IMG/VR virus record: IMGVR_UViG_3300034104_001758
Location: 1 to 61,688 of that record
Origin: a virus
Taxonomy: Duplodnaviria > Caudoviricetes
Length of the DNA: 61,688 nt
Strand: one strand, 5' to 3'
A program made the translations under genes and the position numbers. Below are positions 11,549 through 44,730 of this stretch, in pieces. The notes below the pieces were generated by a model that was not told the origin of the DNA, searched no databases, and worked only from the letters and a program-made list of their open reading frames with translations. The first letter of the stretch is position 1. Each line of letters opens with the position of its first letter.

Positions 11549-11947
11549 ATGCTTAAAGACAAACTAAAGCAGTTAGACGAGCGGATGAATTCACTATCCG
11601 AAAGCCTTAACAAAAGTGCTGACATTGATTTAAAGCCAACAGAAACCATGGCTAACAATGCCAAGCGCGGTCTTGAATTACGCAGAGAATTTGGACGCGG
11701 TGGTACAGCCGTAGGTGTAGCCCGCGCACGTCAACTTTCTAATCGCTCAGAGTTAAGCCCTGAAACCGTAGCGAGAATGTATTCATTCTTCTCTCGTCAC
11801 GAAGTAGACAAACAGGGTAAGGATTGGGACAACGCAGAAAGACCATCAAACGGAAAAATTGCTTGGCTCCTATGGGGCGGAGATTCAGGCTATGCTTGGT
11901 CTCGTCAAAAATGGGAAGCAATTAAGAGAGCACGAGGAGAAAAATAA
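11549..11947 (+). CDS. conserved phage head-associated domain protein
   Basis: GGTAVGVARARQL...RMYSFFSRH...IAWLLWGGD, recalled as often fused to head-morphogenesis proteins. Confidence 0.6.
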   Translation: MLKDKLKQLDERMNSLSESLNKSADIDLKPTETMANNAKRGLELRREFGRGGTAVGVARARQLSNRSELSPETVARMYSFFSRHEVDKQGKDWDNAERPSNGKIAWLLWGGDSGYAWSRQKWEAIKRARGEK

Positions 11948-29611: not shown

Positions 29612-31021
29612 ATGGCAGAAAAATTAGACCTATCTGAATTAGGTTCTACTGGTCTGCGTCACGCAGGTGGCACGGTTTATGAAGAGTTCCTTGTAGCCCT
29701 TCGCGCCCAAAATGGTCAACGTGTTTACCGTGAGATGGCTGACAATGACCCTGTAATTGGTTCCATCCTTTACGCCATTGAAAAAGTTATTGTTCGTCTT
29801 GATTGGCGAGTTGACCCCTACCTAGAACCCAATTCTGAAGGTGCCCCAAAAGATGAGGATGCTGAAGTAGCAGATTTCATTGAATCCTGCATACACGATA
29901 TGTCAGATTCATGGGATTCAACGCTTTCTTCAATTCTTTCCATGCTCCCATTTGGTTTTTCATTCCACGAACTTGTTTACAAGCGCCGTATTGGACCTGA
30001 AGAAAAAGATAGTTCACGCAAGTCAAACTACACCGATGGAAAAATTGGCTGGCGCAAATTTGCTATTCGTAGCCAAGAATCTTTAACCCGCTGGCACATT
30101 GCTGAAGATGGTGGCATCGAAGGTTTGACCCAGAATGACCCTTCAGGTGGTGGCACTCACACAATTCCTATTGAAAAGGCTTTGTTGTTTCGTACTACAG
30201 CGACTAAGAATAACCCTGAAGGTCGCTCCTTACTTCGTAACGCTTATCGCCCTTACTACTTCAAGAAGCGCGTTGAAGAAATTGAAGCAATCGGTATTGA
30301 GCGCGACCTTGCTGGACTTCCAGTTGCCTACGTTCCACCTGAGTATTTATCGTCAACCGCTACAGACGCTCAAAAGGCAGTTCTTAACAGCATCGTTGAC
30401 ATTGTTCAAAACATCAAGCGTAACGAGCAAGAAGGCGTAGTTTTCCCTGCTCAGTATGACGAATCAGGTAAGAAACTATTTGACCTAACATTGCTTTCCA
30501 CTGGTGGCAATCGTCAGTTCGATACAGACAAAATTATTTCTCGCTACGACCAACGCATTTCAATGTCTGTTCTATCTGACTTTATTTTGCTTGGTCACGA
30601 GCAGGTTGGTTCATTTTCACTTGGTACCGCAAAGATGGATTTGTGGTCAATGGCAGTTGACGCTATTGCCAAGAACATTGCTGAAACAATTAATCAGCAC
30701 GCAATTCCGCGCTTGCTTCGCTTAAACGGAATGGACGCTTCACGTCTTCCAGTTCTTACTTACGGCGAGGTTGCACACATTGACCTAACCGAAATTAGCA
30801 ACTACGTTACAAACTTGGCTAACGCAGGAATTATTGTTACCGACCCTAACCTTGAAGATTACTTGCGTCAGTTGGGTGGATTACCTCCAGCAGAGCACGA
30901 TGCAGAATCCACAGGTGCAGTTGACGGTATGCCAGCAGAAATGCCAGCAGATGACGAAACTGAAGATACAACTACAGATGACATGACCGAGGAAGACTTA
31001 ACTTCGGATAACGCTTTCTAG
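29612..31021 (+). CDS. portal protein (DUF935-like)
   Basis: ELG.TGL, NPEGRSLLRNAY, EAIGIERDLAGLP, GSFSL; position before MuF. Confidence 0.85.
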   Translation: MAEKLDLSELGSTGLRHAGGTVYEEFLVALRAQNGQRVYREMADNDPVIGSILYAIEKVIVRLDWRVDPYLEPNSEGAPKDEDAEVADFIESCIHDMSDSWDSTLSSILSMLPFGFSFHELVYKRRIGPEEKDSSRKSNYTDGKIGWRKFAIRSQESLTRWHIAEDGGIEGLTQNDPSGGGTHTIPIEKALLFRTTATKNNPEGRSLLRNAYRPYYFKKRVEEIEAIGIERDLAGLPVAYVPPEYLSSTATDAQKAVLNSIVDIVQNIKRNEQEGVVFPAQYDESGKKLFDLTLLSTGGNRQFDTDKIISRYDQRISMSVLSDFILLGHEQVGSFSLGTAKMDLWSMAVDAIAKNIAETINQHAIPRLLRLNGMDASRLPVLTYGEVAHIDLTEISNYVTNLANAGIIVTDPNLEDYLRQLGGLPPAEHDAESTGAVDGMPAEMPADDETEDTTTDDMTEEDLTSDNAF

Positions 31022-31029
31022 GGGCAAAA

Positions 31030-32019
31030 GTGGGACACATAGTTCGCAAAGCCCGACCCCGTGTTTCTTCGGCGCCGATGTTTACTGGGGCTGAACAGCA
31101 AATTTACGAAATTATTAAGACTTCGCTTTATCGCATGGGTCGCACTGTTGACGCTGATGCAATGGCTCGCGCAATTATTAACTTGCAACCAGATGTCTTA
31201 ACAAAAGTTTTAACCAGTTTAACTATTGGTGAATTGCAAGCAGTTTTACGTCAAGGAATTCTTGCGGTCATAAACAACGCTGGCAAATTAGCAGTTGACG
31301 AAATTCAACCAGTAATTTCTGCTACTCCGTCTTGGGGAAATGCTTTCACAGTTACAGGTAAGCCAAATACCAAACTTCGCTTTAACGTAAACAATCCCCT
31401 TGCAGATGATTTTGCAGACAAACAGGCTGGACGCTTAGTCACAGCAATTGACGAATCAATGCGCTCGGCTATCCGAACCGTAATTAGTGAATCATTCAAG
31501 AATCAGATTCCAGTTGACCTTACGGCTTCAAGGCTTCGGCAATTTGTTGGTTTGCACCCGCGTTGGGCATTGGCTGTAGACCGCTATTTCACGCGCCAGT
31601 ACGAAAGTCTTAGGAATAATGGCGTTACCCACGCAAAAGCGCTTGAAAGGGCTGAGGTGGTCACTGAGACCTATCGTAGGCGCTTGATACGGGCACGCTC
31701 GTCAATGATTGCTCGAACCGAGATTCAGATTGCTCAAAACTGGGGTCGTCAGTTGGCTTGGCAACAGGCTTCAGACGGTGGTTGGGTTGACCCAGACGCT
31801 CAAAAAGTTTGGAAAACCGCTTCCGCAACTATGGGCGGAGTTCCCCCGTGTGACCGTTGTGCCCCTATGGAGGGCGAGAGCGTGCGTTGGAACCAATCTT
31901 TCTCTAATGGTCTACTAATGCCACCTGCTCATCCACATTGTCGCTGTACGGCGTTCCTAATGCCACCTGACAGAGGTTTAAATGATGCTGAGTACATTCG
32001 GACGGGCATTGTTCGATGA
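31030..32019 (+). CDS. MuF-family head morphogenesis (minor head) protein
   Basis: IARTE...K.W......C..C.......PPAHPHCRC. Confidence 0.85.
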   Translation: MGHIVRKARPRVSSAPMFTGAEQQIYEIIKTSLYRMGRTVDADAMARAIINLQPDVLTKVLTSLTIGELQAVLRQGILAVINNAGKLAVDEIQPVISATPSWGNAFTVTGKPNTKLRFNVNNPLADDFADKQAGRLVTAIDESMRSAIRTVISESFKNQIPVDLTASRLRQFVGLHPRWALAVDRYFTRQYESLRNNGVTHAKALERAEVVTETYRRRLIRARSSMIARTEIQIAQNWGRQLAWQQASDGGWVDPDAQKVWKTASATMGGVPPCDRCAPMEGESVRWNQSFSNGLLMPPAHPHCRCTAFLMPPDRGLNDAEYIRTGIVR

Positions 32020-34040
32020 AATCCGTATTTGTATTTCCACCACTTCGTAAACATCAAGCGGGTCAACATGACCAAGAAACTCACGGCTCTTGGGCAACTG
32101 GGAATTTTACTTCAGCAGGTAAAGATGGTTCTTATGATGTTTATGACCACCCAAGTGGCTCAAAGATTTATTTTCAAACTAATCCAGCCATCTTAGATAC
32201 AACTACAGAAGACATAAGAATTAGGCGCGAAGAAGCAATTGGTTATGTTGATGATTTGCTTACTAAATACCCCTTGTCTGACGTAACATTTGTATTTGGT
32301 AATGGAGTTGATGAAAAATACCGCGCAAGTGGAGTGACGCTACCCTACTTTGGAGAACAAGGAAAAGAATCTTGGGGCTTTCCTCTAGATTCAGAAAAAC
32401 CAAACTCTCCAGAAATTATTGACAGTTGGATTAGCACTAACGTACCTAACATTTCGCGTGAAAAAATTAAAGGTGCTTTAGTTGTTTTTCAACCTGAAAT
32501 GTTTGGTAGGAAAAAAACAGGAACACCAAAAACTTTTGGAGAAGTTGCTGAAGAACATTTTATGGCTTTTTCAAATTCTGATTCTCATGTTGGCTGGAAT
32601 GAAAATGGTCTTAAAACAATTATTACCCACGAGTATGGTCATCTTTTAGACCAAAGAACTTATGAAAAATCAGTTAGCGATTTTGGTTCTTTTTCACTTG
32701 AATCCACATCTGATTATGGGCGTAAAAACAGTCGAGAATTATTTGCTGAAACTTTTACCGCTTGGGAATTAGAACGAGATAATCCCAAGTATCAAGCAGG
32801 GTTTGAGATTTTTAATTTTGATAATTTAAGTTCTCTAGTTAAATCTATTTCAGGTTTTCATATTCAAGAATCTTTAGACCCTAATTTTTCTTATGTTTTG
32901 ATTGAATTTGGTGGGATGCAAAAGCACCAAGCAGGAAACCATGACCAAGAGTCACATGGAAGTTGGGCTGTTGGTAGCGATGGCATGGATACTGACTACC
33001 GAATGTCTCACCGTCCACCTGACCCAGAGGACGGCGCTCCAGCGCATGACCTAACTGGTGGCGGTGCTATTTACCCAGAAAATGTTTACGACAAAGATGG
33101 CGCACGCATTTACGCTGGCGGAGAGCCTGAAATGGCTAGACGAGTTCATTCGATTATTACTTCAATGCGCGGAAACCCAAATGCCAAGGTGCAGATTTAT
33201 CGAGCAGTTCCCAAGGGCACAAGACAAGTTAACGTGGGTGACTGGGTAACTATTGACCGCGAGTACGCTGAAGTGCACGGTCAAAGCAACTTAAACAATG
33301 ACTATGACATTCTCAGCAACACAGTTAACGCTGACGAAATCTACACTGACGGTAATTCTTTGTATGAGTGGTCTTACCACCCACGAGTTCAAAAACATCA
33401 AGCGGGTCAACACGACCAGACCACACACGGGTCATGGGCAACTGCTAACGGATACAAACTTGCATCAAAAGATGACCTTCCGTCTCTAGATTCAGCAAAT
33501 TACGATTCAACGGTGCGAAACGCCAGAGATAATTACGTTGGTTTTGGCTACACATGGATGAACGCCTACCTTCGTGATGGATACATTGAAGACACAGTAA
33601 AAATAATTATGAGCGATGAGATTTCAAAAGATGAAGCAATCGGTCAAATAGAGTCTTTAAAAAGCGCCTTGTACGAAACACAAACAACACAAGATTTAAC
33701 CGTAACTAGATGGACACGAACTGGCGAAAGCATTATTGGAGAAAAATTTTCCGAAACGTCAGATTTTGAAAGCCTTATTGGAAAGACTTATCACGCTAAG
33801 GGCTTTACATCTACTTCCGCTAAACCCCATGAGAGCGTAAACGATTCTTACAAGGCACAATCAAAGGTTTTAGCAAACATTCATATGCCAGCAGGTACTT
33901 ATGGCGCTACCGTTGGCAATGACCGAGAAAGCGAATTTATTCTTGCCCCAGATACTTTTTTTGTAGTTATGGGAGTAAACGATATAGGCGAAGGTAGAAT
34001 TTCATTAGACCTTTTAGTGACGGGACAGGGCAATGGATAG
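32016..34040 (+). CDS. three-tag polyprotein: zincin, ART-like domain, VIP2-type ADP-ribosyltransferase
   Basis: HEYGH..SDYG..N..E.FAE; YRAV..GDWVT..EW; MNAYLR..VTR..FTSTS..ESEFIL. Confidence 0.75.
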   Translation: MKSVFVFPPLRKHQAGQHDQETHGSWATGNFTSAGKDGSYDVYDHPSGSKIYFQTNPAILDTTTEDIRIRREEAIGYVDDLLTKYPLSDVTFVFGNGVDEKYRASGVTLPYFGEQGKESWGFPLDSEKPNSPEIIDSWISTNVPNISREKIKGALVVFQPEMFGRKKTGTPKTFGEVAEEHFMAFSNSDSHVGWNENGLKTIITHEYGHLLDQRTYEKSVSDFGSFSLESTSDYGRKNSRELFAETFTAWELERDNPKYQAGFEIFNFDNLSSLVKSISGFHIQESLDPNFSYVLIEFGGMQKHQAGNHDQESHGSWAVGSDGMDTDYRMSHRPPDPEDGAPAHDLTGGGAIYPENVYDKDGARIYAGGEPEMARRVHSIITSMRGNPNAKVQIYRAVPKGTRQVNVGDWVTIDREYAEVHGQSNLNNDYDILSNTVNADEIYTDGNSLYEWSYHPRVQKHQAGQHDQTTHGSWATANGYKLASKDDLPSLDSANYDSTVRNARDNYVGFGYTWMNAYLRDGYIEDTVKIIMSDEISKDEAIGQIESLKSALYETQTTQDLTVTRWTRTGESIIGEKFSETSDFESLIGKTYHAKGFTSTSAKPHESVNDSYKAQSKVLANIHMPAGTYGATVGNDRESEFILAPDTFFVVMGVNDIGEGRISLDLLVTGQGNG

Positions 34041-34917
34041 ATTTACCGATTCATTTCTGTCTGAAGTAAGTCCAGACAAGGCTTTACAACATCGCATACG
34101 CGCCGAAGTAATTCTTGGTCGCTCGCTTTTGACAAAGCACCTAGCGGGTCAACACGACCAACGCACTCACGGAAGTTGGGCTGGCGGTGGTGCTGGAGTT
34201 GACATTACCGCTGACGTGGACAAACTTTTTTACAATCCAGACGGAAGCGTAAATAAAGAAACTCAAGATGTTATTAATCAAATGACCGAAAAAGAATTAG
34301 CAAACGGTCATCGCTATGGCGATAATGCTTTAAAAATTATTGCTGAACGTCAAGGATTTACAGGAAAACCTAAAACAGTTTCTACGGTTGCAGAACTAAA
34401 AAAATTGCAAGAAACAGAAGGCGGAATGATTGTTTATAGAGGTATTTCAGAGTGGAAAAGACTGGAAGTAATACCAGAACCTTATACACCGACAGTTATT
34501 ACTTACACGGCAGAACAGGCTGTAGAGCAATTCAAAAGAGGTGAATACTACGCTGGTTTTGGAGCGTTTGGAACTGGCACTTATACAACAGTAAAAGGAG
34601 ACGAAGCGTCTGCTTACGCTAATGACAAAGACGAAGATAATGACACTTATGGCAACGGAAAAGTTATGGCTATTCACATTCCAAAAAATGCCAAAATTCC
34701 AACACAAGAACAAGTAACTAGAGCCATGAAAATGGTTAATTATGATGATGGACCTAATGTAACAACCTACAAACAAAATGTTGCTCGTATTTTAGCGGCG
34801 CAGGGTTTTCAAGTTTACAATGCTGGTTTGTTACAGGACGACAAGAAAGATTATTTTGTTGTTTTAGACAGGTCTATGCTTACGGTTGCAGACCAAGATT
34901 GGATGATTGGATTATGA
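34033..34917 (+). CDS. tag plus ART-like domain
   Basis: VYRG...G.GAFG.G.YT......A..YA. Confidence 0.55.
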   Translation: MDRFTDSFLSEVSPDKALQHRIRAEVILGRSLLTKHLAGQHDQRTHGSWAGGGAGVDITADVDKLFYNPDGSVNKETQDVINQMTEKELANGHRYGDNALKIIAERQGFTGKPKTVSTVAELKKLQETEGGMIVYRGISEWKRLEVIPEPYTPTVITYTAEQAVEQFKRGEYYAGFGAFGTGTYTTVKGDEASAYANDKDEDNDTYGNGKVMAIHIPKNAKIPTQEQVTRAMKMVNYDDGPNVTTYKQNVARILAAQGFQVYNAGLLQDDKKDYFVVLDRSMLTVADQDWMIGL

Positions 34918-35705
34918 TGACTCCAACCGAATCACGCCGTTACGGTCTTATGGTCAGAGACTTTACTCCCGATGAAGCCAAGGCTTACAACGACCACCTT
35001 CTTGCAGGTAAAAGGGCAGAAGACTTTTTTGCCAAGATGGAAAAGCACCTTGCTGGTCAACACGACCAGAGTTCGCACGGGTCATGGGCTATTGATACTT
35101 TTGATGATTTAGGTGTTTGGGTTAAAAAATCAGAAGAACAATACGGAATAAATAGAAGAACAATTCAAGCAGAAATTGAGTTGCAACAAGTTGCCCAAGG
35201 ATTTAATTCAAGTTCTAATCCTGAGTATGCAAGTTCTGTTTCTATCTATCAAGAAAAATACGGAACTGTAATTAATGAAGCGCTAAGAGACCCATTAATT
35301 TCTACGCAGGGAGTTGAAAAACAAATTGCAGACTTAGACAAAGTATTAGATAGCGCCCCACCTTTAAAAGAACAAATTCTTGCGTATCGAGGAATAAATG
35401 GTGAAGGTCTTGAGTTTTTTGAAAACCTAAAAGTTGGCGATGTATTTCAAGATAAAGGATATGTGTCTACAACTTTAAACCCTAAAACTGCTGGGACTTT
35501 TGCTAATTCTGATTTATCTTCTTATGCTCAAGGAATGGTATTGCAATTCCATTTACCTAAAGGAACCAAAGGATTGTTTCCTACTCCGTTTTTAGGAATA
35601 GGGACGCTTTCATTCTCGGAATTAGAATTTTTATTACCGAGAGACACCAAATTTAAGGTAACGCAAATTCGCGGTAAAGTCATGGACTTGGAGATAACCC
35701 AATGA
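34914..35705 (+). CDS. tag plus VIP2-type (R-S-E) ADP-ribosyltransferase
   Basis: INEALR, AYRG, DKGYVSTT, ELEFLLPRDTKFKV. Confidence 0.8.
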   Translation: MMTPTESRRYGLMVRDFTPDEAKAYNDHLLAGKRAEDFFAKMEKHLAGQHDQSSHGSWAIDTFDDLGVWVKKSEEQYGINRRTIQAEIELQQVAQGFNSSSNPEYASSVSIYQEKYGTVINEALRDPLISTQGVEKQIADLDKVLDSAPPLKEQILAYRGINGEGLEFFENLKVGDVFQDKGYVSTTLNPKTAGTFANSDLSSYAQGMVLQFHLPKGTKGLFPTPFLGIGTLSFSELEFLLPRDTKFKVTQIRGKVMDLEITQ

Positions 35706-37228
35706 CCCCTGAAGTTCAAAAATTTGGCTATGACTCTGCTCAGGGTCTAAGTCTTGTTTTAGAAAAACCAAAATCTGTTTATGTAGTTCCGCCACTAGCC
35801 AAGGCTGTTGACGATGACTACAACCCTCTTGCCAAATACACAAAAACTGCTCACGTTGCTTTAGGTCGCTCACTTGGAATCAAGGCTGGTGAGTTCATAA
35901 CCGAAAAACATCAGGCTGGTAAGCACGACCAAGAAACTCACGGCAATTGGGCTGGTGACAGATTCAGTCCAGATTCAGTTAAGTCTGCCCGTGATGGAGC
36001 AAAAGAGTACGCCTTTAAGTTTGGAATTAAGCAAGATGACAGCATTGAGTATGACGAAGTGGTTGCAAACCGCGCTCGTGCATCCAAGATTGCTGACGCT
36101 TATGACGACCTACCGAAGTACGACAAAGACGCTGTAGATGAGTACGAAGCCCTAGCCACCGAAGTCGAACAACAGTATGACTACATGACCAAAACCCTTG
36201 GCATCAAGGTTGAGTTCATTTCGGAAGACCCATACAAGACATCTAAAGAAATGTTTGCTGAAGTTTCTACTGGCAAACTACGGGTTCTTAAAACGGAATC
36301 TACTGGAGCACACCCATTATTTAGCAACCAGCAAAACGATAAGTTCCGTGCAGTTCACGATTACTTTGGTCACGCGGCTACTGGTCGAGGGTTTGGGCAA
36401 GACGGCGAAGAAGCGGCGTGGGTTCATCACTCACAAATGTTCGGCAAAAAGGCTCGTGGCGCTCTAACTACTGAAACCCGTGGGCAGAATTCTTGGTACA
36501 ACACCCGCAAGAATGGTTTTGCTGACCAAAAGGTTGCGTTACTTCCTGAGCAGTATTGGGAAGTTCCAGCGGTGTTTGCAAAGCATCAAGCAGGTCAACA
36601 TGACCAATCTACGCACGGCAGTTGGGCTACTGGAATTGCTGAAAAGATTTCTTTGAAAACTGCTAGTCTTAAAGACCAAGGTATAACGCAAGAGTTCATA
36701 AAAGACCCAAAAAGAAAAGCAGAATTATTTGTAAATTTGGAAAATGTCGCTCTTTCTGCAATTGAATCAGATAAAAAATTAAACCCTGAATCAGATTTAG
36801 ATTTAAGTGAAATTTTGTATACTCAAGAATTTTTAATGACTTCTAGAGCAATGGATTGGGAGAATGATAATCCAAAACTTGCTTTTAAATCTGTTTTATT
36901 AACCAATAAAGGAAATGTTGCTGGAGCGATGGCTGTATCACTTGAAAGCAATTCTAACGGTGAACCCATTGTTGAAATTCATTACTTAGGTACAACTGGA
37001 ATAGTAGACGGTGCTGGAAGTATGCTTTATGGGCAAGCAATTAATTATGCCTACAAAAATAAAATGGGCTTGCAGTTGTATCCATTAGACAAAGCAGTTC
37101 CTTTTTGGATAAGCATGGGTTTTGAGCGTGACACTTCTGATTCTAATTATTTGCAAATACCCGCCAATAAAATTGAATTACTATGGAAAGAATTAACAAT
37201 AGTAGAAAGTGCGATGCCTAATGTCTAA
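35702..37228 (+). CDS. two-tag polyprotein: HDxxGH/TETRGQ domain plus GNAT-like acetyltransferase
   Basis: FRAVHDYFGH..GEEAAW..TETRGQNSW; IHYLG....GAGSML.......AVPFW..MGF. Confidence 0.65.
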   Translation: MTPEVQKFGYDSAQGLSLVLEKPKSVYVVPPLAKAVDDDYNPLAKYTKTAHVALGRSLGIKAGEFITEKHQAGKHDQETHGNWAGDRFSPDSVKSARDGAKEYAFKFGIKQDDSIEYDEVVANRARASKIADAYDDLPKYDKDAVDEYEALATEVEQQYDYMTKTLGIKVEFISEDPYKTSKEMFAEVSTGKLRVLKTESTGAHPLFSNQQNDKFRAVHDYFGHAATGRGFGQDGEEAAWVHHSQMFGKKARGALTTETRGQNSWYNTRKNGFADQKVALLPEQYWEVPAVFAKHQAGQHDQSTHGSWATGIAEKISLKTASLKDQGITQEFIKDPKRKAELFVNLENVALSAIESDKKLNPESDLDLSEILYTQEFLMTSRAMDWENDNPKLAFKSVLLTNKGNVAGAMAVSLESNSNGEPIVEIHYLGTTGIVDGAGSMLYGQAINYAYKNKMGLQLYPLDKAVPFWISMGFERDTSDSNYLQIPANKIELLWKELTIVESAMPNV

Positions 37229-38288
37229 AGGAATAGCAAGTTTTACTGACGAACCGTTTTTGCTTAACATGATTAACAAAAAGCAGTTGGCTAAACACTA
37301 CGCAGGACAGCACGACCAGTCCACGCACGGCAGTTGGGCGCACGGTATGGGTGGCGATACCTTTTCAGACGACCCTAGGTACCAAGAAGCATTAAAAGAA
37401 TATGGAAAGTTAAGCGAAAACGATAAAGTTTTGTCTACTTCAAATGATGTTTTTTGGGACAGTCCTATAGGAAAACTTATTATTGAATACGCAGATAAAA
37501 AGTTTCCAAATAATAAAACAATTAGCAGTGCAAAAAATAATGACAAACCAGTAAAGAAAAATTTAGAAATAAGAGAAGGTTTAAAAACTCGTTTTATAGA
37601 TGAAGGTCTTGCACAACAAGATTATGAGGAATCAGGAATCTATAAAATGTATTTTGAAACTATTTATCCTGACATCATAAATGTTGTTACAAGCGGAAAA
37701 CTTGCAATTGCTATGGACGTAGGCTCTTTTCGAAATATGATAGAAAGTGGAAAAAGCGAATTTAAAAATCAATTTCAGACTAAATCCTCTAATGGTCTTC
37801 TTGACCCATCCATGAGAAAAAAGGGAGAATTGGCTAATCAGTACATCCCCGTAGAAGTAAAACCAAGTGACAGACCTATTTATGGGTATGTATCTCCAGA
37901 TGACTCCTTAGATAACGTAACTTCTCTTGGAACATTCCAATACGGAGAAGTAAAATTTGTATTAAAAGATTCCGTAAGAGATAGAGCAACTATGACTATT
38001 GGTGATTCTCTTGGTACTAGGGCTTTTCCTATGAAAATAAATAAAACTCCAAGTGTAAAAGATGTAATGAACGCGACAGCCAGAATGATAAGACAAGCCT
38101 ACGGCAGGGGCAACAGAGATTGGAACGGGCAAGATAGTTTTGCTGAAACAGAATACTTTGAAGCACAAATTTTTGGTGGCGTTTCTGCAAAAGACATTGA
38201 AATGATTTATGTCCCAAATAACTGGGATTTACCTTCTAATTTTGCTTCTGTTTTTCCCAATATTGAAGTTGTCAGATACGATTCATAG
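37221..38288 (+). CDS. tag plus DUF3626-like (possible ART-fold) domain
   Basis: KNQFQT, RPIYG, YG.V.F.LK..VR.R.T.T.GDS, YFEAQIFGGV...DIE. Confidence 0.65.
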   Translation: MSKGIASFTDEPFLLNMINKKQLAKHYAGQHDQSTHGSWAHGMGGDTFSDDPRYQEALKEYGKLSENDKVLSTSNDVFWDSPIGKLIIEYADKKFPNNKTISSAKNNDKPVKKNLEIREGLKTRFIDEGLAQQDYEESGIYKMYFETIYPDIINVVTSGKLAIAMDVGSFRNMIESGKSEFKNQFQTKSSNGLLDPSMRKKGELANQYIPVEVKPSDRPIYGYVSPDDSLDNVTSLGTFQYGEVKFVLKDSVRDRATMTIGDSLGTRAFPMKINKTPSVKDVMNATARMIRQAYGRGNRDWNGQDSFAETEYFEAQIFGGVSAKDIEMIYVPNNWDLPSNFASVFPNIEVVRYDS

Positions 38289-38302
38289 TAGAAGGGAATA
38301 AA

Positions 38303-38479
38303 ATGATAAAAGGACAAGTAATCGCAGTAAGGGCTGACGGCGCTCAGTTCGTTTTTGATTCTATTGATGAACAGGAAACTATTTCAGGTTTTTTGATTTT
38401 AAAAAACGGCGCCCAAACTGAAATCGGTCTTATGGATATGTTTACCAAGGTCGGAGACTGGGAGCGAGTTGACCAGTAG
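38303..38479 (+). CDS. small protein (58 aa), candidate immunity protein
   Basis: Hand-translated MIKGQVIAVRADGAQFVF...KVGDWERVDQ; GAAGGGA RBS. Confidence 0.65.
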   Translation: MIKGQVIAVRADGAQFVFDSIDEQETISGFLILKNGAQTEIGLMDMFTKVGDWERVDQ

Positions 38480-38509
38480 TTAGCAATCCTCATGGGGTAA
38501 TCTATCCTC

Positions 38510-40048
38510 ATGTCACGCGCTAACCGTATTGCTCGCCTTGTCGCCATCCAGCAGGGCACTGAGTTCATTTTGCTCAAGCACCAACAAGGTAAGCACGACC
38601 AAGCCACGCACGGTTCATGGGACACAGACCGAAGCAACAACAAATCTGATTTTAAATACCCAGTTCAAGACGCAATTGATAAAGTTATTAAAGGCGAAGT
38701 TGGCAAAGTAGTTCCTGCCGATGCTGAGTTTTTGCTAGACAAAATGGCTGACCGCGAAGACAACCCAGACTTAACCAATCTTGAAATTGTTGGTACCCAG
38801 TTATTTACTCGCGACAATCTTGGAATTATGCGCGACCAGATGCCACAAGTTCCTAGCGGAGCCAAGGATGAGTTCCTTGATGAAATGACTAAGCGCGGTA
38901 TTGGGGTTAAGAGAGAAGATGTATCTCCTCAAAAACTGCACCCGATTCAGGCTGAAATTTCCGCTTCCAAAACTGGAAAGATTCTTCGTGACCTAAATCA
39001 GAACGGTCACAAAAAAGGTGATGGCGCCAGAATTGTTGTTTCTTCAGATAACTATGTAATTGACGGACACCACCGCTGGGCGGCTTCTGCCTTTATGTCT
39101 TTAAACGATGGCGATGAAAAGATTCCTGTATTGCGCGTTGACATGACACACATGGAATTAATTGATGTTGTTCGGGCTTGGAATAAAGCGATGGACATTA
39201 AACCAATTGGCATGGGGGAAAGCAACACCTTTAAGAAGGCTTGGGTTGAGTTCGAATTAGCGGTTATCAAGGGAATCCTTACAACCGAAATGCAAAAGCA
39301 CCTAACAGGACAACATGACCAAGAAACCCATGGCAGTTGGGCACAGGGACGTGAATACGTTGCTGGTCAATGGGAACCAGTTGAAACCGATAAATTAGTT
39401 CAGCAAGATGTTGATTGGTATAAATCAGAAAACCCCAACGCAACGCCTAGTCAAATCTCAGCACTTAAATCAAGAAGTAAAAAGTATTACAAAGATAGAA
39501 CAGTTGTGAGCAATGGAAGCACTGTAGTAACTTTTGAAAACAGAATTGACAAAAATAAAACTGGTGTTGATGAAAATGACAGAAAAACAATTCTTGAACA
39601 CATTGATTACTTACAAGAAAATTATCCTTTAGAAAACATTTCTGTTATAGCGGATAGCCAAGGCGGAAGTTCGGTTTGCTCAATGACTGAAAATGGAAAC
39701 GCTATTCGAATATCTCAAGTATGGGCACAAAAATCTAAAAAATTTGCGTACATGGGTTCTAAAGACAAACTCTATCCCCTTGATGAAGGAGAATTTGGTT
39801 TAGAATTTACTTTGTCACATGAATGGGGACACGCCTTCAATAATCCCTACAAACAGTTAAGTCAAAAATACGGAAAATTTATTGAAAAACACAAAAATTT
39901 ACTAGACACAGTTAGCACTTACGGTAGAAAATCTGAAGGAGAAGGTTTTGCCGAAACTTTTGCTCAAAATTCTTTAGAAAATAAATATGGTATTGAAAAA
40001 ATGGAAATAACTAAATTATTTGAAGTGGAGGTACTTGGAAATGTCTGA
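38510..40048 (+). CDS. two-tag polyprotein: ParB/Srx-like domain plus zincin
   Basis: R.QMPQ..L.P.Q.EI..YVIDGHHRWAA; HEWGH..STYG....E.FAE. Confidence 0.7.
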   Translation: MSRANRIARLVAIQQGTEFILLKHQQGKHDQATHGSWDTDRSNNKSDFKYPVQDAIDKVIKGEVGKVVPADAEFLLDKMADREDNPDLTNLEIVGTQLFTRDNLGIMRDQMPQVPSGAKDEFLDEMTKRGIGVKREDVSPQKLHPIQAEISASKTGKILRDLNQNGHKKGDGARIVVSSDNYVIDGHHRWAASAFMSLNDGDEKIPVLRVDMTHMELIDVVRAWNKAMDIKPIGMGESNTFKKAWVEFELAVIKGILTTEMQKHLTGQHDQETHGSWAQGREYVAGQWEPVETDKLVQQDVDWYKSENPNATPSQISALKSRSKKYYKDRTVVSNGSTVVTFENRIDKNKTGVDENDRKTILEHIDYLQENYPLENISVIADSQGGSSVCSMTENGNAIRISQVWAQKSKKFAYMGSKDKLYPLDEGEFGLEFTLSHEWGHAFNNPYKQLSQKYGKFIEKHKNLLDTVSTYGRKSEGEGFAETFAQNSLENKYGIEKMEITKLFEVEVLGNV

Positions 40049-41507
40049 AATAATTGATTTAGAAAATTTATCAGATGACGAATTGTACTTTTTTGCTACA
40101 AATAAAGTTAAAAAAGTAATGCCTTTATTTATTTCTAGTTTGACTTCTGTTCAAAAGCACTTAACGGGTCAGCATGACCAGTCCAGCCACGGCGCTTGGT
40201 CTACAAAATTAAACCCAGATGTGGCTTCTGACATTGTTAGATTTACTCAGGAATGGGGCGGATTATCAATCAACATGGTTGATGGTTCGATGCCTATATC
40301 TGGTTACATGGTGGCAAAACCGCCAGAATTCGGCAGAATTGTGGACGAAGTTGACTTTGTTAACCCAGTTAAGGGTCCAAAAATCCTTTCTGATTACATG
40401 AAAACCCATAAAAATGACCTAGGTAATGGAAGAAACTATCTTGGCACATGGCTAAATGATAGTAAGGTGTATCTTGATGTTTCTGAAAACATTCAGGAAT
40501 TGTTTGAAGCAATAAGAAGAGGTCGGGAACGTAACCAGAAAGCAATCTGGGACGTTGCTAACCTAAGTGAAATAGACACAGGAGGGACTGGTCTTGTCAA
40601 AGAAAGAAATCAAGATGGTGGAGTTGAAGAACATCTCGGAGATGACAGACGCGGAGATAGACGAGTACGCACTGAAAATCTGGGGAAGTCTTCAGGAGAA
40701 GAAAGATTAACAGTATTTGTTAAACCTCCAGTTGTAAAACATTTGGCTGGTCAACATGACCAGAGTTCCCATGGCAGTTGGGCTGGAACAACAAGCCTTG
40801 GTGCTGGTTCTGGTTTAAGCGCTCAAGAAATAAGAAACTTAAAAATAGGTGCAGGAACACAAGAAACTCAACAACAAGAAGTTTACAAAGCCGAAAATCT
40901 TGCAAGAGAAGAAATTTCACCAATTGATAGAAATTTAGAAGAACCAAGTTTTTCTTTTCCCAGTCCGTTTCGTTCTCAACCATTTGTTTACACCAGTGCT
41001 GAAGAAAAAGCATTTAAAAAGGCTTGGAAAAAATGGGAAACAGAAAGAAAAAAGTATATTGAATCTGAGTTGGGAAACAAACATTTAGATGGGACTATTG
41101 GTGGAGTAAGAAATTATGTAAACGAAGTTATTGATTCTGATTGGTTTAGAGAAGAATACGGCGTACCAAGCACATTCAGCATAGATAATGGTAAAAAGTT
41201 TGCAGAACACCAACCAGAAATAAAAACTCTTACATCTAAAACATACGGTGGATTGTATAGATTTAGAGATTATTACATACACGGGAAAAGAAGTTCAATA
41301 GAAATTAGAAATGATACTCTTAAATATGAACCCACCATTCTTCACGAAATTGCTCATTATGCTACTGCTATTAGCGCAACTAATAAGCACTCAGGTCATG
41401 GTAAAGAATTTGCTTTTAATAATCTAAAAATTGCAAAACAATTTATGCCAAAATACGCTATTGCTCTTGAGAGATACTATAAAGAAATGGGAATTTCATA
41501 TGAATGA
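40041..41507 (+). CDS. two-tag polyprotein: unknown domain plus SprT-like zincin
   Basis: GY.V...GTW.....YLDVS....A...G....Q.AIWD; ILHEIAH....HSGHGKEF. Confidence 0.65.
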   Translation: MSEIIDLENLSDDELYFFATNKVKKVMPLFISSLTSVQKHLTGQHDQSSHGAWSTKLNPDVASDIVRFTQEWGGLSINMVDGSMPISGYMVAKPPEFGRIVDEVDFVNPVKGPKILSDYMKTHKNDLGNGRNYLGTWLNDSKVYLDVSENIQELFEAIRRGRERNQKAIWDVANLSEIDTGGTGLVKERNQDGGVEEHLGDDRRGDRRVRTENLGKSSGEERLTVFVKPPVVKHLAGQHDQSSHGSWAGTTSLGAGSGLSAQEIRNLKIGAGTQETQQQEVYKAENLAREEISPIDRNLEEPSFSFPSPFRSQPFVYTSAEEKAFKKAWKKWETERKKYIESELGNKHLDGTIGGVRNYVNEVIDSDWFREEYGVPSTFSIDNGKKFAEHQPEIKTLTSKTYGGLYRFRDYYIHGKRSSIEIRNDTLKYEPTILHEIAHYATAISATNKHSGHGKEFAFNNLKIAKQFMPKYAIALERYYKEMGISYE

Positions 41508-41625
41508 CAAAGAACCAGAAGACTTTTATTTTGAAATAACTGAACCATTACCGCCAGATTATGTTCCGTTTCCAGAACTTGCTGGGCGTTTAATCGAGAA
41601 ACACGAACAAGAAACAGGGTCATAG
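41500..41625 (+). CDS. small acidic protein ending in a decayed tag
   Basis: MNDKEPEDFYFE...LIEKHEQETGS-stop. Confidence 0.55.
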   Translation: MNDKEPEDFYFEITEPLPPDYVPFPELAGRLIEKHEQETGS

Positions 41626-41676
41626 TACCTAGCGTGCACTAAAGTGGCATAAGGTTTGTCACCACTAGGAGTTCTC

Positions 41677-43041
41677 ATGTCTGTAGGTTTCTCGCATCTT
41701 AACGATGCTGAGTTGGAAACACTGCATAAATCACTGCACACTGATGTGGCAAACCCAGCAGTTCTTGAAGCCCATCACTCTGTAACTACCGAAATCCTTG
41801 CACGCGGTCTTGAGCACGGTCACGAAGATGACGAGTGGAATCGGGCAGTAGTTGAGTTGGAAATAGAAGACCAAATCCCAGTTTCTAAGGCTATTGCCGA
41901 AATGCCAACCGACATTGCCGAGCAGGTAATTGAATCTTTGGGCAATCCTGAGTTCGTTAAAAAGACTACATTGCTTACCGTTGATGGTTACACCTTAAAG
42001 TTTGACGCTTTTGAAAAGTCCGAAGAAGTAGAAATGCGTCTTAACGAAACCCAGAAAATGCTTTACGAAACCCTTGAAGCCGTTGTTGAGCGAGTTGGTG
42101 CTTTTGACCAAGGTGCAGGTGCTAACGGCGCTCACTACATGGAAAAAAATCCTTTTGTAAAAGAGGGAATGATTTGCGCCAACTGCGTCTTTTACGAAGG
42201 CGGTCAGGGCTGTGAGATTGTTACTGGGTTAATTGACCCAATGGCTTTATGTAAGTTCTGGATTATTCCTGAAGATTTACTTGATTCTTCAGTTAGCAAA
42301 CACCGAGCAGGACAACACGACCAAAAATCCCATGGGTCATGGGCTGGAAACAAAATACCTAATTTAGCACCAAACAAAATTGACGAAAGTAATCAGTATG
42401 GGGACGAAGCAAATTCTTTAGCAAGGGAATTGCGCGAAAGAATGATTTTAGCAGAACCACAATTAACTGCCGACATGGTTGAAATCGCAGATGCTAATTT
42501 TGGAACAATGCAAGGATTGGAAAATCGTGTAAAAAGCGAAGAATCTCTTGCCCGCAAAATTAAAAATGATTCTCTAGAATACGGTGGAGACATGAGACAG
42601 GCTACTCAAAAAGTTAGCGATGGCTTACGCTACAGCGTTACTTTTGATGAAGAAAATTACGCCGAAAGTGTTGTTTCTACTATTGCTACCTTGCAGGATA
42701 AAGGCTATCAAGTTTCTCGAACAAAAAACTTTTGGCAAAAAGGTGATGCCTACCAAGGAATTAACGCAAAAATCATTCACCCAAGCGGTTTTGAAGTAGA
42801 GTTACAATTTCATACTCCAGATTCTTGGGATGTTAAACAAAACAAAAGCGAAGAAATTTATCAAATGTATCGAGTTGAAACAGATAACAAAAAACGCTTT
42901 AAGCACTGGAAGTCAATGGCTAAAATGTTTGCTCAAGTTGCCGTTCCTATTGGAGTTGCGTCTATTGGAGACCCAGCAATTCAAGCCTTTACTGCTGGTG
43001 GAAAACAATTTATTTTTAAGGCTAGAGCGAGGAAAATGTAA
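41677..43041 (+). CDS. His-rich domain, HiPIP-like Cys domain, tag, and RelA/SpoT-fold Apk2/Tas1-like (p)ppApp synthetase
   Basis: EP.LT.DM..GLE.R.K..ESL.RKI..D.LRY..KN.W..Y.GIN..ELQFHT..S...K..Y..YR. Confidence 0.8.
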   Translation: MSVGFSHLNDAELETLHKSLHTDVANPAVLEAHHSVTTEILARGLEHGHEDDEWNRAVVELEIEDQIPVSKAIAEMPTDIAEQVIESLGNPEFVKKTTLLTVDGYTLKFDAFEKSEEVEMRLNETQKMLYETLEAVVERVGAFDQGAGANGAHYMEKNPFVKEGMICANCVFYEGGQGCEIVTGLIDPMALCKFWIIPEDLLDSSVSKHRAGQHDQKSHGSWAGNKIPNLAPNKIDESNQYGDEANSLARELRERMILAEPQLTADMVEIADANFGTMQGLENRVKSEESLARKIKNDSLEYGGDMRQATQKVSDGLRYSVTFDEENYAESVVSTIATLQDKGYQVSRTKNFWQKGDAYQGINAKIIHPSGFEVELQFHTPDSWDVKQNKSEEIYQMYRVETDNKKRFKHWKSMAKMFAQVAVPIGVASIGDPAIQAFTAGGKQFIFKARARKM

Positions 43042-43778
43042 TGCGCTATTTTTACCGTGTTGATTCTAGCGACATTGTTACCTCTGCCTATCGGTTTATG
43101 GTTGACGAAGAGTCAGAAACCATAACTGATGAAAAGTGGACACCAAATGGTTGGATTGATTCTGGAGATAAAGTAGTTGAATTTTTAATTACTGGTCTTG
43201 GCAACCTAGAAGAAGTAACCGAAGAGGACATAAAAAGGTACAGCCCTGAAATTTTAGAACTTCCAGAAGTTTCTTATGTGTCTAAATCTGCCGAAGAGCG
43301 CCGTTACACACTAGGTCCAATGTACGTTCCAGACCGAATTGACGCTCATAACGAATGGACAGATTCACTTGAGTTGCAAAAATCTGTTTGGGATTATGTC
43401 CGTAGCGGAGACCGCCGAATTCGCCTACAGCACGACAAAGAAGTTGTTGCTGGAGAATGGGTAGAAGTTATGGCGTGGCCGTATGAAGTGGCAGTTCCAA
43501 TGCAAAAAGCAGACGGAACTTCAGCACAAATTACATTCCCACAAGATACGGTTTTTCTTGGAGTTATCTGGGAGCCATGGGCTTGGGAAATGGTAAAGGC
43601 TGGCAAACTTCGTGGTTACTCAGTTGGTGGACGCGCTCAAAGACTAGAAGTTGATTTGCCAGTTAGCAAAGAAGCAATGGCAGTTGACGGTCCAACCGTA
43701 GAATCAGTTCACGAAGATACTTTAATGGCACCTAAGCGCCGAAAGAAAAAGAAAGACGAGTCGGAAAAATCCGAATAG
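43041..43778 (+). CDS. XkdF-like prohead serine protease with N-terminal immunity-like domain
   Basis: RYTLGPMYVPD..DAH, LQH, W..VK.GKLRGYSVGG from about residue 83. Confidence 0.8.
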   Translation: MRYFYRVDSSDIVTSAYRFMVDEESETITDEKWTPNGWIDSGDKVVEFLITGLGNLEEVTEEDIKRYSPEILELPEVSYVSKSAEERRYTLGPMYVPDRIDAHNEWTDSLELQKSVWDYVRSGDRRIRLQHDKEVVAGEWVEVMAWPYEVAVPMQKADGTSAQITFPQDTVFLGVIWEPWAWEMVKAGKLRGYSVGGRAQRLEVDLPVSKEAMAVDGPTVESVHEDTLMAPKRRKKKKDESEKSE

Positions 43779-43917: not shown

Positions 43918-44730
43918 GTGGCGTTTTCTCGCACTCGCAAAATGGTCAATCTCAACATTGAGGAAACCAGCGGAGTAGATTACCCAGCCCATTTACATGA
44001 TGGTTGGTTAGTTATGAAAGCGGCAAACCCTTCAGACGTGCAGACAGTTCTTGAATCATCCGTTTCCAAGGAGGACTCCATGTCGGAGAGCATTGAAAGT
44101 CGGCTAGATGAAGCGTTAGAACTTCTGACAAAGGCTGAAGAACGTATTGCTGAACTGGAAGATGGCACCGAAGAAGTTGCAGACGAAACTGAAGCCAACA
44201 AAAAGAAAAAGAAAATGGCTAAAGAAGAAGATGCAATGGATTCCTCAGAAGAGGAAGAGGACGTAATGAAGTCCATGCCAGAACCAGTACAAAAAGCATT
44301 TGAAACCTTGCGTAAGCAAGCAGAAGAAGCACAGGCAAAGGCTGATGAAGCCGAATCTGTACTTCAAACAGAGCGCGAAGCACACGCAGATGCCGAAGCG
44401 ATTGAAAAGGCTCGTGGTTGGTCACATCTATCACTAGACGCACAAGAAGTAGGCCCAGCCCTTCGCCGTCTAGCACAGATTGACGAAACACTAGCAAAGT
44501 CAGTAACAGAAGTTCTTGAGAGTGTAAACGCTCAGGCTGAGTCTGCTGACATTTTTGCCGAGATTGGTCGCACGACTGGTACTTCTGGCAACGCATTTTC
44601 CCAGTTGGAATCAATGGCTAAGTCTGCTGTTTCCGAAGGTAAAGCGTCAACTGTTGAGCAAGCACTTGCTGACCTTGCAGTTGCCGAACCATCACTGTAC
44701 TCACAGTACCTAAACGAGAAGGGTGCCTAA
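43918..44730 (+). CDS. capsid scaffolding protein
   Basis: S.VD.PA....W..MK N-terminus, acidic coiled coil, C-terminal P.LY.QY; upstream of the capsid genes. Confidence 0.75.
   Translation: MAFSRTRKMVNLNIEETSGVDYPAHLHDGWLVMKAANPSDVQTVLESSVSKEDSMSESIESRLDEALELLTKAEERIAELEDGTEEVADETEANKKKKKMAKEEDAMDSSEEEEDVMKSMPEPVQKAFETLRKQAEEAQAKADEAESVLQTEREAHADAEAIEKARGWSHLSLDAQEVGPALRRLAQIDETLAKSVTEVLESVNAQAESADIFAEIGRTTGTSGNAFSQLESMAKSAVSEGKASTVEQALADLAVAEPSLYSQYLNEKGA

Follow-up and report, generated by a model that had tools for sequence, protein, structure and literature searches.

In the window, that is, the whole 61,688-nucleotide stretch of viral DNA that was analysed, the head-assembly genes follow the order portal, MuF, array, XkdF-type protease, scaffold and capsid protein (Table 1). 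The array consists of eight ORFs on the plus strand at positions 32016–43041. An earlier note on this DNA had placed it between MuF and the prohead protease, and Pfam and PHROG matches that identify both flanking genes bear this out. The MuF-like protein scores 29.3 bits against the Pfam profile PF04233 (Phage_Mu_F), slightly below the cut-off of 29.6, and has strong matches to head-morphogenesis PHROGs (phrog_3517, E = 4e-33). The protease exceeds the gathering score of Peptidase_S78_2 and is sited between the portal/MuF and the scaffold/capsid genes. The gene after it probably encodes a scaffold-like protein, a role read from its position and composition.

Table 1. Positions of the head-assembly genes, array ORFs, tag copies and outlying tagged protein in the window.
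Feature	Positions	Strand	Description
Portal protein	29612..31021	+	Portal_Mu PF06074, E 5.7e-41; 57% identity to Arthrobacter phage portals
MuF-like head morphogenesis protein	31030..32019	+	Stand-alone, 329 aa; ends at MuF domain, no cargo fusion
ORF1	32016..34040	+	Tag, HExxH (zincin-like), tag, phrog_2579 domain, tag, ADP-ribosyltransferase
Tag 1 (ORF1)	32049..32093	+	Pattern match; preceded by SVFVFPPLR extension
Tag 2 (ORF1)	32922..32966	+	Pattern match
Tag 3 (ORF1)	33393..33437	+	Pattern match
ORF2	34033..34917	+	34-aa leader, tag, 244-aa domain without family assignment
Tag 4 (ORF2)	34135..34179	+	Pattern match
ORF3	34899..35705	+	Three-helix leader, tag, VIP2/C3-like ADP-ribosyltransferase (Pfam E 3.6e-19)
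Tag 5 (ORF3)	35043..35087	+	Pattern match
ORF4	35702..37228	+	68-aa leader, tag, phrog_3170 domain, tag, domain without family assignment
Tag 6 (ORF4)	35906..35950	+	Pattern match
Tag 7 (ORF4)	36581..36625	+	Pattern match
ORF5	37209..38288	+	Leader, tag, DUF3626-like domain (27.5 bits, cut-off 27)
Tag 8 (ORF5)	37293..37337	+	Pattern match
ORF6	38510..40048	+	Tag, ParB/DarB-like domain (phrog_2859 292-459), tag, HExxH domain
Tag 9 (ORF6)	38576..38620	+	Pattern match
Tag 10 (ORF6)	39296..39340	+	Pattern match
ORF7	40020..41507	+	Leader, tag, phrog_17808 domain, tag, SprT-like zincin
Tag 11 (ORF7)	40155..40199	+	Pattern match
Tag 12 (ORF7)	40737..40781	+	Pattern match; preceded by TVFVKPPVV extension
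ORF8	41656..43041	+	214-aa untagged N-terminal domain, tag, RelA/SpoT-like (Apk2-type) domain
Tag 13 (ORF8)	42298..42342	+	Pattern match
XkdF-type prohead serine protease	43041..43778	+	Peptidase_S78_2, 39.8 bits (cut-off 24)
Acidic scaffold-like protein	43918..44730	+	phrog_13547, E 1e-65
Major capsid protein	45148..46125	+	phrog_1005, E 3e-101; 56% identity to Kovu MCP
Outlying protein	10830..11546	+	Degenerate tag KHGTHDQEDHGG and Hva1_TUDOR domain

The array is marked by a recurring peptide, K-H-x2-G-x-H-D-Q-x2-H-G-x-W (hereafter the tag). Thirteen exact matches to H..G.HDQ..HG.W were found, each directly preceded by lysine and all on the plus strand, distributed over ORF1 to ORF8 as 3, 1, 1, 2, 1, 2, 2 and 1 copies; the back-translated DNA pattern likewise matched 13 times, whereas 100 dinucleotide-preserving shuffles averaged 0.00 matches, so that the count first proposed (13 copies in eight ORFs, one to three in each) stands. 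The fuller consensus is hydrophobic-x-K-H-(x2)-G-x-H-D-Q-x-[ST]-H-G-[SN]-W-A. Codon usage differs among the copies, as had been noted: lysine is encoded by AAA in six and AAG in seven, histidine by CAT or CAC, and glycine by GGT, GGA, GGC or GGG. The mean pairwise identity is 0.54 at the third positions of invariant degenerate codons and 0.69 over the whole 51 nucleotides, while the 60-nucleotide flanks are 28–30% identical. Varied codons between unrelated flanks mean that it is the peptide that is under selection, and conservation is at the protein level.

Each tag is followed by a different domain, in agreement with the initial description: when the 13 cargo segments were compared with one another by blastp, a single clear pair emerged, the zincin-like c1 and c10 (37% over 62 residues, E = 2e-6), besides a weak match between c4 and c5 (E = 0.058). 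Two segments match ADPrib_exo_Tox in Pfam (E = 4e-13 and 2e-19), one is SprT-like (31.2 bits) and three contain HExxH. Of the cargo names given earlier, those of two VIP2-type ADP-ribosyltransferases (ARTs), a DUF3626-like domain (barely above its cut-off), the SprT-like domain and three HExxH segments are thus retained, whereas a GNAT and two further ART-like domains found no backing in Pfam, PHROGs or NCBIfam. The best PDB match of the ORF3 model (Foldseek) is VIP2 (E = 3.8e-11), followed by Vis toxin and C3, and in a 21-sequence alignment R130, S190-T191-T192 and E241-x-E243 vary little or not at all; the domain has the fold and the Arg, Ser-Thr-(Ser/Thr) and Glu-x-Glu elements of C2/C3/VIP2-like R-S-E enzymes. 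The Apk2-like synthetase named in ORF8 is upheld in part: its RelA_SpoT match (21.2 bits) is below the cut-off of 27, but by tblastn this stretch is similar to the C-terminal portions of MuF/minor head proteins from pneumococcal prophages. Apk2 domains are reportedly grouped with the MuF polymorphic toxins of temperate phages. ORF8 also matches phrog_2859, phrog_7625 and phrog_2841. The ParB/DarB-like domain of ORF6 shares ~30–35% identity with Ackermannviridae genes for an ‘unknown structural protein’ (tblastn), and the cargo ARTs match Alt-like and MuF-ART PHROGs. Such matches show that the cargo is of the type known as MuF-fused or virion-borne effectors.

Beyond the window, the tag was found in ~99 IMG/VR contigs and in 596 proteins among 1.84 billion representatives. 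Single polyproteins hold as many as 19 tags, and three of them (P0002, P0004 and P0001) contain 8 to 19 tagged domains each. The best 150 of the 596 proteins carry 496 tags; a median of 27 residues separates the first tag from the N-terminus (50 or fewer in 101/150), the last is followed by a median of 259 residues (at least 50 in 146/150) and the median tag-to-tag spacing is 233 residues. A search of 185,579 prokaryote genomes gave no genuine match, the one hit to the exact long-form pattern being spurious; the tag-bearing phages were thus not seen as prophages. No cultured phage carrying the tag was found, and comparison with Pfam, the PDB and the literature searched for its motif strings returned no family, structure or mention; no description of the tag was thus found, and the earlier note had known of none.

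In 80 loci with relatives of the protease, which were picked by similarity and are therefore not independent samples, 333 tags were counted, none of them on the strand opposite the protease. In 46 of these loci the sequence extends 5 kb or more beyond the protease on its upstream side, and 42 of the 46 have tags there; in the loci with MuF located, all 169 upstream tags lay between the end of MuF and the start of the protease. Five more contigs were hand-picked from pattern matches outside the protease loci; MuF lies beside the array in four and the protease in three. Thirteen tags also occur in a 97-kb record that is 53% complete, with MuF and the XkdF protease undetectable in the available part. 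In nearly all contigs examined, the tag is therefore restricted to the head-assembly module, the outcome that the earlier note had named as support for its reading. Within this module the tagged units are shuffled, fused and split: the same cargo is found behind tags at differing positions and in different ORFs, ORF boundaries vary freely, two proteins (P0052 and P0070) have the order MuF-linker-tag-cargo, and in one record the last array protein is fused to the protease. With one tag heading varied domains across relatives, its description as a portable protein-level module with swappable cargo holds. In two tag-less relatives (L302 and L307) MuF adjoins the protease and the array is absent, and in Arthrobacter phage Kovu, a cultured tag-less relative, MuF and the protease both carry additional domains instead. 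We argue from these gene arrangements that a tag-plus-domain unit and a domain joined covalently to a head protein can replace each other. The leader of ORF4 contains an orphan SVYVVPPL extension, where relatives show extension-tag-cargo7.

In two AF2 models the tag is unstructured and the cargo domains are confident. The ORF3 model has a mean pLDDT of 84, with residues 53–63 (tag 5) below 50; in the model from ORF7, the extension and tag (residues 1–39 of the model) are likewise below 50. This fits the expectation for a motif that is read in trans by a partner.

The best explanation treats the tag as a short linear motif, placed in the flexible linker that leads into each effector domain of the array on its N-terminal side. 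We put at about even the chance that phage polyvalent effector proteins use it as a portable signal for incorporation into the head and for processing. As a common head-assembly signal, it would be recognized inside the assembling prohead by one conserved partner, the candidates being the prohead protease and the other components inside the head. Recognition would let each tagged unit enter the head, and multi-domain proteins would be cut at the tags, so that single domains could leave with the DNA at infection. Polyproteins of 8 to 19 domains are hard to picture working uncut, which favours processing. Tags 6–27 residues from the N-terminus would be superfluous for pure cutting, as would tags kept after fusion to MuF for pure loading; thus, neither half alone suffices. 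A more general reading, tentative and on balance somewhat doubtful, is that the tag is a cargo-loading peptide of tailed-phage capsids, equivalent to the loading peptide of encapsulins, that docks on a conserved internal prohead site, through which cargo would be encapsidated, trimmed and injected. The dock would be the capsid protein, scaffold, MuF or portal, possibly via a metal-bridged His cluster. If true, this would explain how hundreds of unrelated enzymes acquired the tag.

A cleavage-site role, which the earlier note had not considered, accounts for the giant polyproteins and for the MuF-tag-cargo fusions no less well than a loading role does, and the tag could be a proteolytic processing site only, cut by the prohead protease or an array zincin, with loading by other means. 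Zincin autoprocessing has been proposed for polyvalent proteins (Iyer et al., 2017; PMC5512222). The lysine of the tag is invariant, the residue two positions before it is hydrophobic in 79–88%, tags in P0002 follow the final strand of the domain ahead of them by 5 to 8 residues, and the window itself encodes three HExxH domains, all in line with cutting. Nevertheless, we consider it unlikely that cutting is the only function. Some 16 residues of the tag are strongly conserved, far more than in the known prohead protease sites of T4 and phiKZ-like phages, where only 3 to 4 count, and tags near the N-terminus of single-domain ORFs are conserved as well as internal ones. HExxH is missing from 13 of 31 complete tagged arrays, and in the AF2 model of ORF7 the tag is not docked onto the adjacent zincin. 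Furthermore, the scaffold and capsid proteins, which are the usual substrates of the prohead protease, lack the tag; the protease therefore cannot rely on the whole motif for all of its substrates.

Alternatively, the tag might act after injection or on DNA, as a small metal-dependent module through which all effectors would share one address, such as the nucleoid, a hub protein of the host or the phage DNA within the head. Its three His, one Asp, two Gly turns and variable loop may resemble metal-binding knuckles, and the models in which it is disordered are metal-free; but it has no relative in the PDB or Pfam, and a host role would leave the strict head-operon placement unexplained. Gly takes the place of the HDQ histidine in 16 of 421 parsed tags (among them 16 of the 19 tags of a single polyprotein), W is missing from 28%, and the loop preceding the second His has either 2 or 4 residues; the Gly substitution and the two loop lengths speak against a strict three-His-plus-Asp metal site, and we regard a role after injection or on DNA as distinctly improbable. 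That the tag is mainly a cassette boundary easing the recombinational swap of effector modules would agree with the occurrence of the same cargo behind tags of different positions, with shifting ORF limits and with the orphan extension of ORF4, which resembles a remnant left where a module was inserted. However, the tag is conserved in amino acids and not in DNA, and its DNA identity is too low for homologous recombination, which is not the pattern predicted for a DNA-level role and makes this explanation very hard to credit.

As a putative signal for head incorporation and processing, the tag can be compared with several known peptides. The T4 capsid targeting sequence is strictly N-terminal, comprises ~10 residues, is shared by unrelated internal proteins and is removed by the prohead protease. 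The tag is likewise a short peptide common to unrelated proteins, with an in-head fate as a candidate, but its sequence is different and it also occurs internally, in up to 19 copies per protein. The cargo-loading peptides of encapsulins, whose shell has the HK97 fold, are mostly C-terminal and disordered, and their binding to the shell protein has been shown. By analogy, the tag may be seen as a conserved short sequence, modelled as disordered, that would mark diverse cargo for the inside of the head, although it lies ahead of each domain. In polymorphic toxins, VENN (CdiA) or PxxxxDPxGL (Rhs) precedes a variable toxin domain, with cassette exchange and, in Rhs, self-cleavage. The tag shares the position directly before a variable domain, but differs in sequence and delivery machine and is repeated before every domain.

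The closest comparison is with the polyvalent proteins of phages and conjugative elements, the domains of which are predicted to be packaged and injected (Iyer et al., 2017; PMC5512222). Common to both are unrelated effector domains strung in one polypeptide and encoded beside virion genes; in the array, ORF1 has three domains and ORF4, ORF6, ORF7 and ORF8 have two each. The polyvalent repertoire described in that paper includes ART, zincin/MPTase, ParB, RelA/SpoT, GNAT and NUDIX domains; the array holds two ADPrib_exo_Tox, the SprT-like, a weak RelA_SpoT and the three HExxH domains, and tag-bearing relatives carry the ART-PolyVal and ddrB-ParB Pfam domains of the same source, together with GNAT, NUDIX and Zeta_toxin. 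The array differs in that one conserved peptide heads every domain and in that the set is spread over eight ORFs. No mention of a domain-heading peptide was found in the passages of PMC5512222 that were searched. In the MuF polymorphic toxins of temperate phages (Jamet et al., 2017; PMC5576092), an N-terminal MuF is covalently joined to a variable toxin domain at the C-terminus. These toxins share with the array the MuF-linked locus, the variable toxin-like cargo and the RelA/SpoT-like homology to MuF C-terminal parts. In the window, however, MuF stands alone, and the cargo, encoded in separate ORFs, comprises 13 domains and not just one; covalent fusion is seen only in some relatives, namely the MuF-linker-tag-cargo proteins.

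Outside the array region, a 14th, degenerate copy of the tag, KHGTHDQEDHGG, is present at ~10989–11024 in a protein with an Hva1_TUDOR domain. A relative of this protein in another locus (L067) has an intact tag, and in two more loci (L295 and L238) tagged Hva1_TUDOR-like proteins directly follow the protease.

The window spans 61,688 bases and is a complete virus record of IMG/VR (CheckV estimate 100%). Its six-frame translation gave 13 matches to the pattern H..G.HDQ..HG.W, each preceded by K and all on the plus strand between 32049 and 42342; the back-translated DNA pattern also matched 13 times, whereas 100 shuffles gave a mean of 0.00. The count of 13 tag copies over eight ORFs put forward in the earlier note is thus borne out, and these ORFs abut or overlap one another. 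Every degenerate invariant position of the 13 window tags shows synonymous codon variation, the third positions of these codons have a mean pairwise identity of only 0.54, and the 60-nt flanks on both sides are 28–30% identical, which is the level of unrelated sequence. Tag conservation therefore resides in the peptide, as the note had held, and recent duplication of DNA does not account for the copies. A less strict scan revealed a 14th, degenerate copy, KHGTHDQEDHGG, in an ORF that lies directly after the large terminase and also carries an Hva1_TUDOR domain; its relative in the viral locus L067 has an intact tag. The 132-aa ORF that follows matches positions 156–259 of phrog_2859. Since this domain belongs to the last array protein in relatives, it seems to have been relocated in the window.

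Features of the window, with the number of intact tags in each array ORF
Feature	Position	Tags	Remark
Large terminase to portal	9241-29612		about 18 kb of other genes between
ORF after large terminase	10830-11546		degenerate 14th tag copy
132-aa ORF	11549-11947		phrog_2859-like domain
Array ORF1	32016-34040	3	
Array ORF2	34033-34917	1	
Array ORF3	34899-35705	1	VIP2/C3-like ART cargo
Array ORF4	35702-37228	2	
ORF4 leader	35702-35905		orphan extension
Array ORF5	37209-38288	1	
Array ORF6	38510-40048	2	ParB/DarB-like cargo
Array ORF7	40020-41507	2	SprT-like zincin cargo
Array ORF8	41656-43041	1	RelA/SpoT-like cargo
RelA/SpoT-like cargo domain	42346-43038		
Scaffold-like protein, N-terminal stretch	43918-43990		
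Major capsid protein	45148-46125		

The array is embedded in a head module. A Mu-type portal (E 5.7e-41) lies upstream, as does a MuF-like protein that stands alone (29.3 bits, Pfam cut-off 29.6; phrog_3517, E 4e-33). Downstream is an XkdF-type prohead protease (Peptidase_S78_2, 39.8 bits; cut-off 24), and beyond it come a scaffold-like protein of acidic composition, a small protein resembling head fibres and the major capsid protein.

Beyond the residues fixed by the pattern, the tags listed from IMG/VR carry a hydrophobic residue two positions before K (88%), T or S before the last His (93%), S or N before W (81%) and A after W (91%). We parsed 421 tags from the 150 best of 596 representative proteins found by a profile search; 75 more did not fit the parsing pattern and were excluded. 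The loop between K-H and H-D-Q has four residues in 294 of these and two in 124, and one phage can hold both lengths; the HDQ motif retains its His in 403 and has Gly instead in 16, and W is present in 305. Some tags are preceded by an extension, [VI][VI]-x-F-x-P-G-L-K-P-[VT]-[LI], which is frequently the extreme N-terminus of the first gene after MuF. This extension (V-I-x-F-x-P-G-L-K-P) was considered as a marker of zincin cargo and rejected, as an HExxH segment follows only four of 52 extension-bearing tags. Two AF2 models show confident cargo domains and a tag with pLDDT below 50; the low-confidence stretches are residues 53–63 of ORF3, between a three-helix leader and the ART, and residues 1–39 of the SprT-like unit. 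Judging from these models, the tag is best described as a short linear motif within a linker.

The earlier note assigned a different domain to each tag, and we split the ORFs at the tags into 13 segments that were scanned separately. An all-against-all comparison found the segments mutually unrelated except for two zincin-like ones; HExxH is present in three segments. Pfam returned ADPrib_exo_Tox twice (E 4e-13 and 2e-19), DUF3626 (27.5 bits; cut-off 27), SprT-like (31.2; cut-off 25.6) and, below threshold, RelA_SpoT (21.2 against 27). The ORF3 ART keeps its R, S-T-T and E-x-E positions across 21 sequences, and its AF2 model (mean pLDDT 84) has VIP2, Vis and C3 exoenzymes as its best PDB fold matches. 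These results uphold the two VIP2-type ARTs and the DUF3626-like domain named in the note; its GNAT domain and two further ART-like domains were not confirmed by Pfam, PHROGs or NCBIfam, and a zincin model had no confident fold match in the PDB. Among the PHROGs, the cargo ARTs match Alt-like ART families and the C-terminal part of phrog_595, labelled 'head maturation protease', and the RelA/SpoT-like segment matches families labelled 'head morphogenesis' and 'minor head protein' in their C-terminal parts; in tblastn, the latter segment also matches pneumococcal prophage MuF/minor head genes. The ParB/DarB-like segment resembles 'unknown structural protein' genes of LIMEstone1-like phages. As a separate observation, the NCBIfam model for XopAD/skwp type III effectors aligns over its C-terminal 200 positions with the RelA/SpoT-like cargo at E 1.8e-32, with a score far under the whole-protein cut-off. 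From this sequence match, a family of secretion-system effectors seems to use the same domain.

The tag is widespread among viral sequences. Scanned for exact matches to the long-form pattern, IMG/VR gave at least 225 stretches on at least about 99 contigs, with at least 227 distinct tags, and a profile of the 13 window tags against 1.84 billion representative proteins gave the 596 matches at E ≤ 0.001, 146 of them at ≤ 1e-10. The long-form pattern matched once in 185,579 prokaryote species (one genome each), and this match, antisense within a Phaeobacter gene for an ABC permease, was rejected as accidental. Among the tagged representatives, one protein of 7,059 aa has 19 tags, another of 3,023 aa has ten, and a third of 2,201 aa (P0002) has nine tags and eight ART domains. 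The tags of the largest (P0004) are mostly of the K-H-G-T-G-D-Q form and precede repeated units of about 420 aa. Many tagged domains belong to no known family; among the recognizable cargoes, P0064 has a topoisomerase I core of eukaryotic type, and P0083 combines a PI3/PI4-kinase-like domain with a cysteine dioxygenase one. In 83 tag-bearing representatives and the window ORFs, the tag was not covered by any Pfam family, and the PDB sequence set gave no match at E 10; phrog_2859 (740 positions, labelled function unknown) includes it at positions 267–295.

In the 150 best representatives, the median distance from the N-terminus to the first tag is 27 aa, consecutive tags are a median of 233 aa apart and a median of 259 aa follows the last one; thus, the tag stands ahead of a domain, not behind it. 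Across 80 loci with relatives of the protease, none of 333 tags is on the opposite strand. Tags occur upstream of the protease in 42 of the 46 loci having at least 5 kb there, L242, L290, L302 and L307 being without and L268 having one weak match. A few tags lie directly after the protease, in small ORFs ahead of the scaffold gene that carry an Hva1_TUDOR-like domain or an acidic tail; an apparent tag within the protease of L295 and L238 was rejected, as the ORF listing places it in a separate downstream ORF. These 80 loci are related to each other, so the counts describe one clade rather than independent events. We also hand-picked five contigs from the larger records among pattern matches outside this set: MuF is beside the array in four (one of which ends inside the array) and the protease in three. 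Where MuF was found, all 169 upstream tags of the loci lie between its end and the start of the protease, which agrees with the confinement to head modules expected in the earlier note; the fifth contig, a 97-kb record (G001; loci L311 and L312) that is 53% complete, departs from it, as it has 13 tags at its two ends, and MuF, the XkdF protease and other head genes were not detected near its array, PHROGs included. Sugar-modification genes follow that array.

Comparison of relatives shows that ORF boundaries vary freely and tag-plus-domain units persist. P0052 and P0070 are single proteins of the order MuF, linker, tag and cargo. The last array protein always begins with the same untagged domain, and in a related record (G003; L313, 1651–3615, minus strand) it runs in frame into the prohead protease domain, in the order untagged domain, tag, ParB/DarB-like domain and protease, with no second tag at the joint. 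In the tag-less loci L302 and L307, MuF adjoins the protease with no array. The ORF4 leader of the window contains an orphan SVYVVPPLAK extension with no tag directly after it; in L229, L231 and L232, the same extension leads directly into a tag and a homologue of cargo 7. This arrangement suggests that a module of tag plus cargo 6 was inserted in ORF4.

The nearest cultured phages infect Arthrobacter and Microbacterium, with 57% identity in the portal, about 58% in the protease domain and 56% in the capsid protein. The tag was not found in the first 26 kb of Kovu and Laroye, nor by HMM in the regions of ACP17, CAU_YEP3, Kovu and Laroye. The MuF of Kovu has about 250 extra C-terminal residues, and its protease begins with a domain that is annotated 'RNA ligase' and has two H-x-T motifs. 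A 30-aa tag stretch gave no tblastn match at E 10 in 50,697 phage records, to which the low-complexity filter may contribute, and a search for cultured carriers with P0051 (six tags and MuF) gave no match. Matches of ORF6 and of an L238 protein in cultured phages were rejected as tag carriers, since they cover the cargo domains and not the tag.

These observations fit a tag that is read as a signal during head assembly. The tag specifically marks proteins whose genes lie between MuF and the scaffold gene, covalent fusion to MuF or the protease can take its place, and it heads enzymes of kinds that other phages carry in the virion. Two roles of such a signal are plausible and mutually compatible. 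For loading, a putative head component would bind the tag; that the motif is long and strong, and is conserved at the start of ORFs with a single domain, favours this role. For cutting, the tags would be putative sites at which polyproteins are split into single domains; polyproteins of eight to 19 units, the persistence of tags after MuF fusion, and the invariant K with a hydrophobic residue two positions ahead argue for this role. General processing by the array zincins is unlikely, given that HExxH is absent in 13 of 31 complete tagged arrays. The obvious candidate is the prohead protease, although the scaffold and capsid proteins have no tag. A metal-binding role of the tag, raised in the earlier note, is possible but weakened by the Gly variant of the HDQ His and by the two loop lengths, and a role in recombination at the DNA level is unlikely, since the codons diverge.

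The array belongs with the polyvalent effector proteins (Iyer et al., 2017; PMC5512222) and shares cargo types with the MuF polymorphic toxins (Jamet et al., 2017; PMC5576092); the passages searched in both papers hold no mention of the tag, and its motif strings were not found in the literature searched. Strictly speaking, the window array does not qualify as a MuF toxin, since its MuF is unfused to cargo. The new element appears to be the shared heading peptide. In its proposed function, it recalls the capsid targeting sequence of T4, the loading peptides of encapsulins and the boundary motifs of polymorphic toxins. To our knowledge, how tailed phages choose the proteins that are loaded into the head and injected is known for only a few model phages. 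One portable peptide on hundreds of unrelated effector domains would make this choice testable and would serve as a sequence handle to find injected effectors in metagenomes; if the tag suffices for loading, it would provide a general, portable rule for phage effector packaging.

Three further features of the head module were observed. The capsid protein is unusually conserved in related contigs, with a mean column identity of 86% across 45 sequences, compared with 66% for the protease and 55% for MuF. The scaffold-like protein has an N-terminal stretch, N-I-E-E-T-S-G-V-D-x-P-A-H-L-H-x-G-W-L-V-M-K, that is conserved in relatives and that we take to resemble the C-terminal strand of HK97-type prohead proteases. 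Finally, the large terminase and the portal are separated by a gap unusual for a head module, which holds M23-type peptidase/endolysin-like, cytosine methyltransferase and tRNA-methyltransferase-like genes.
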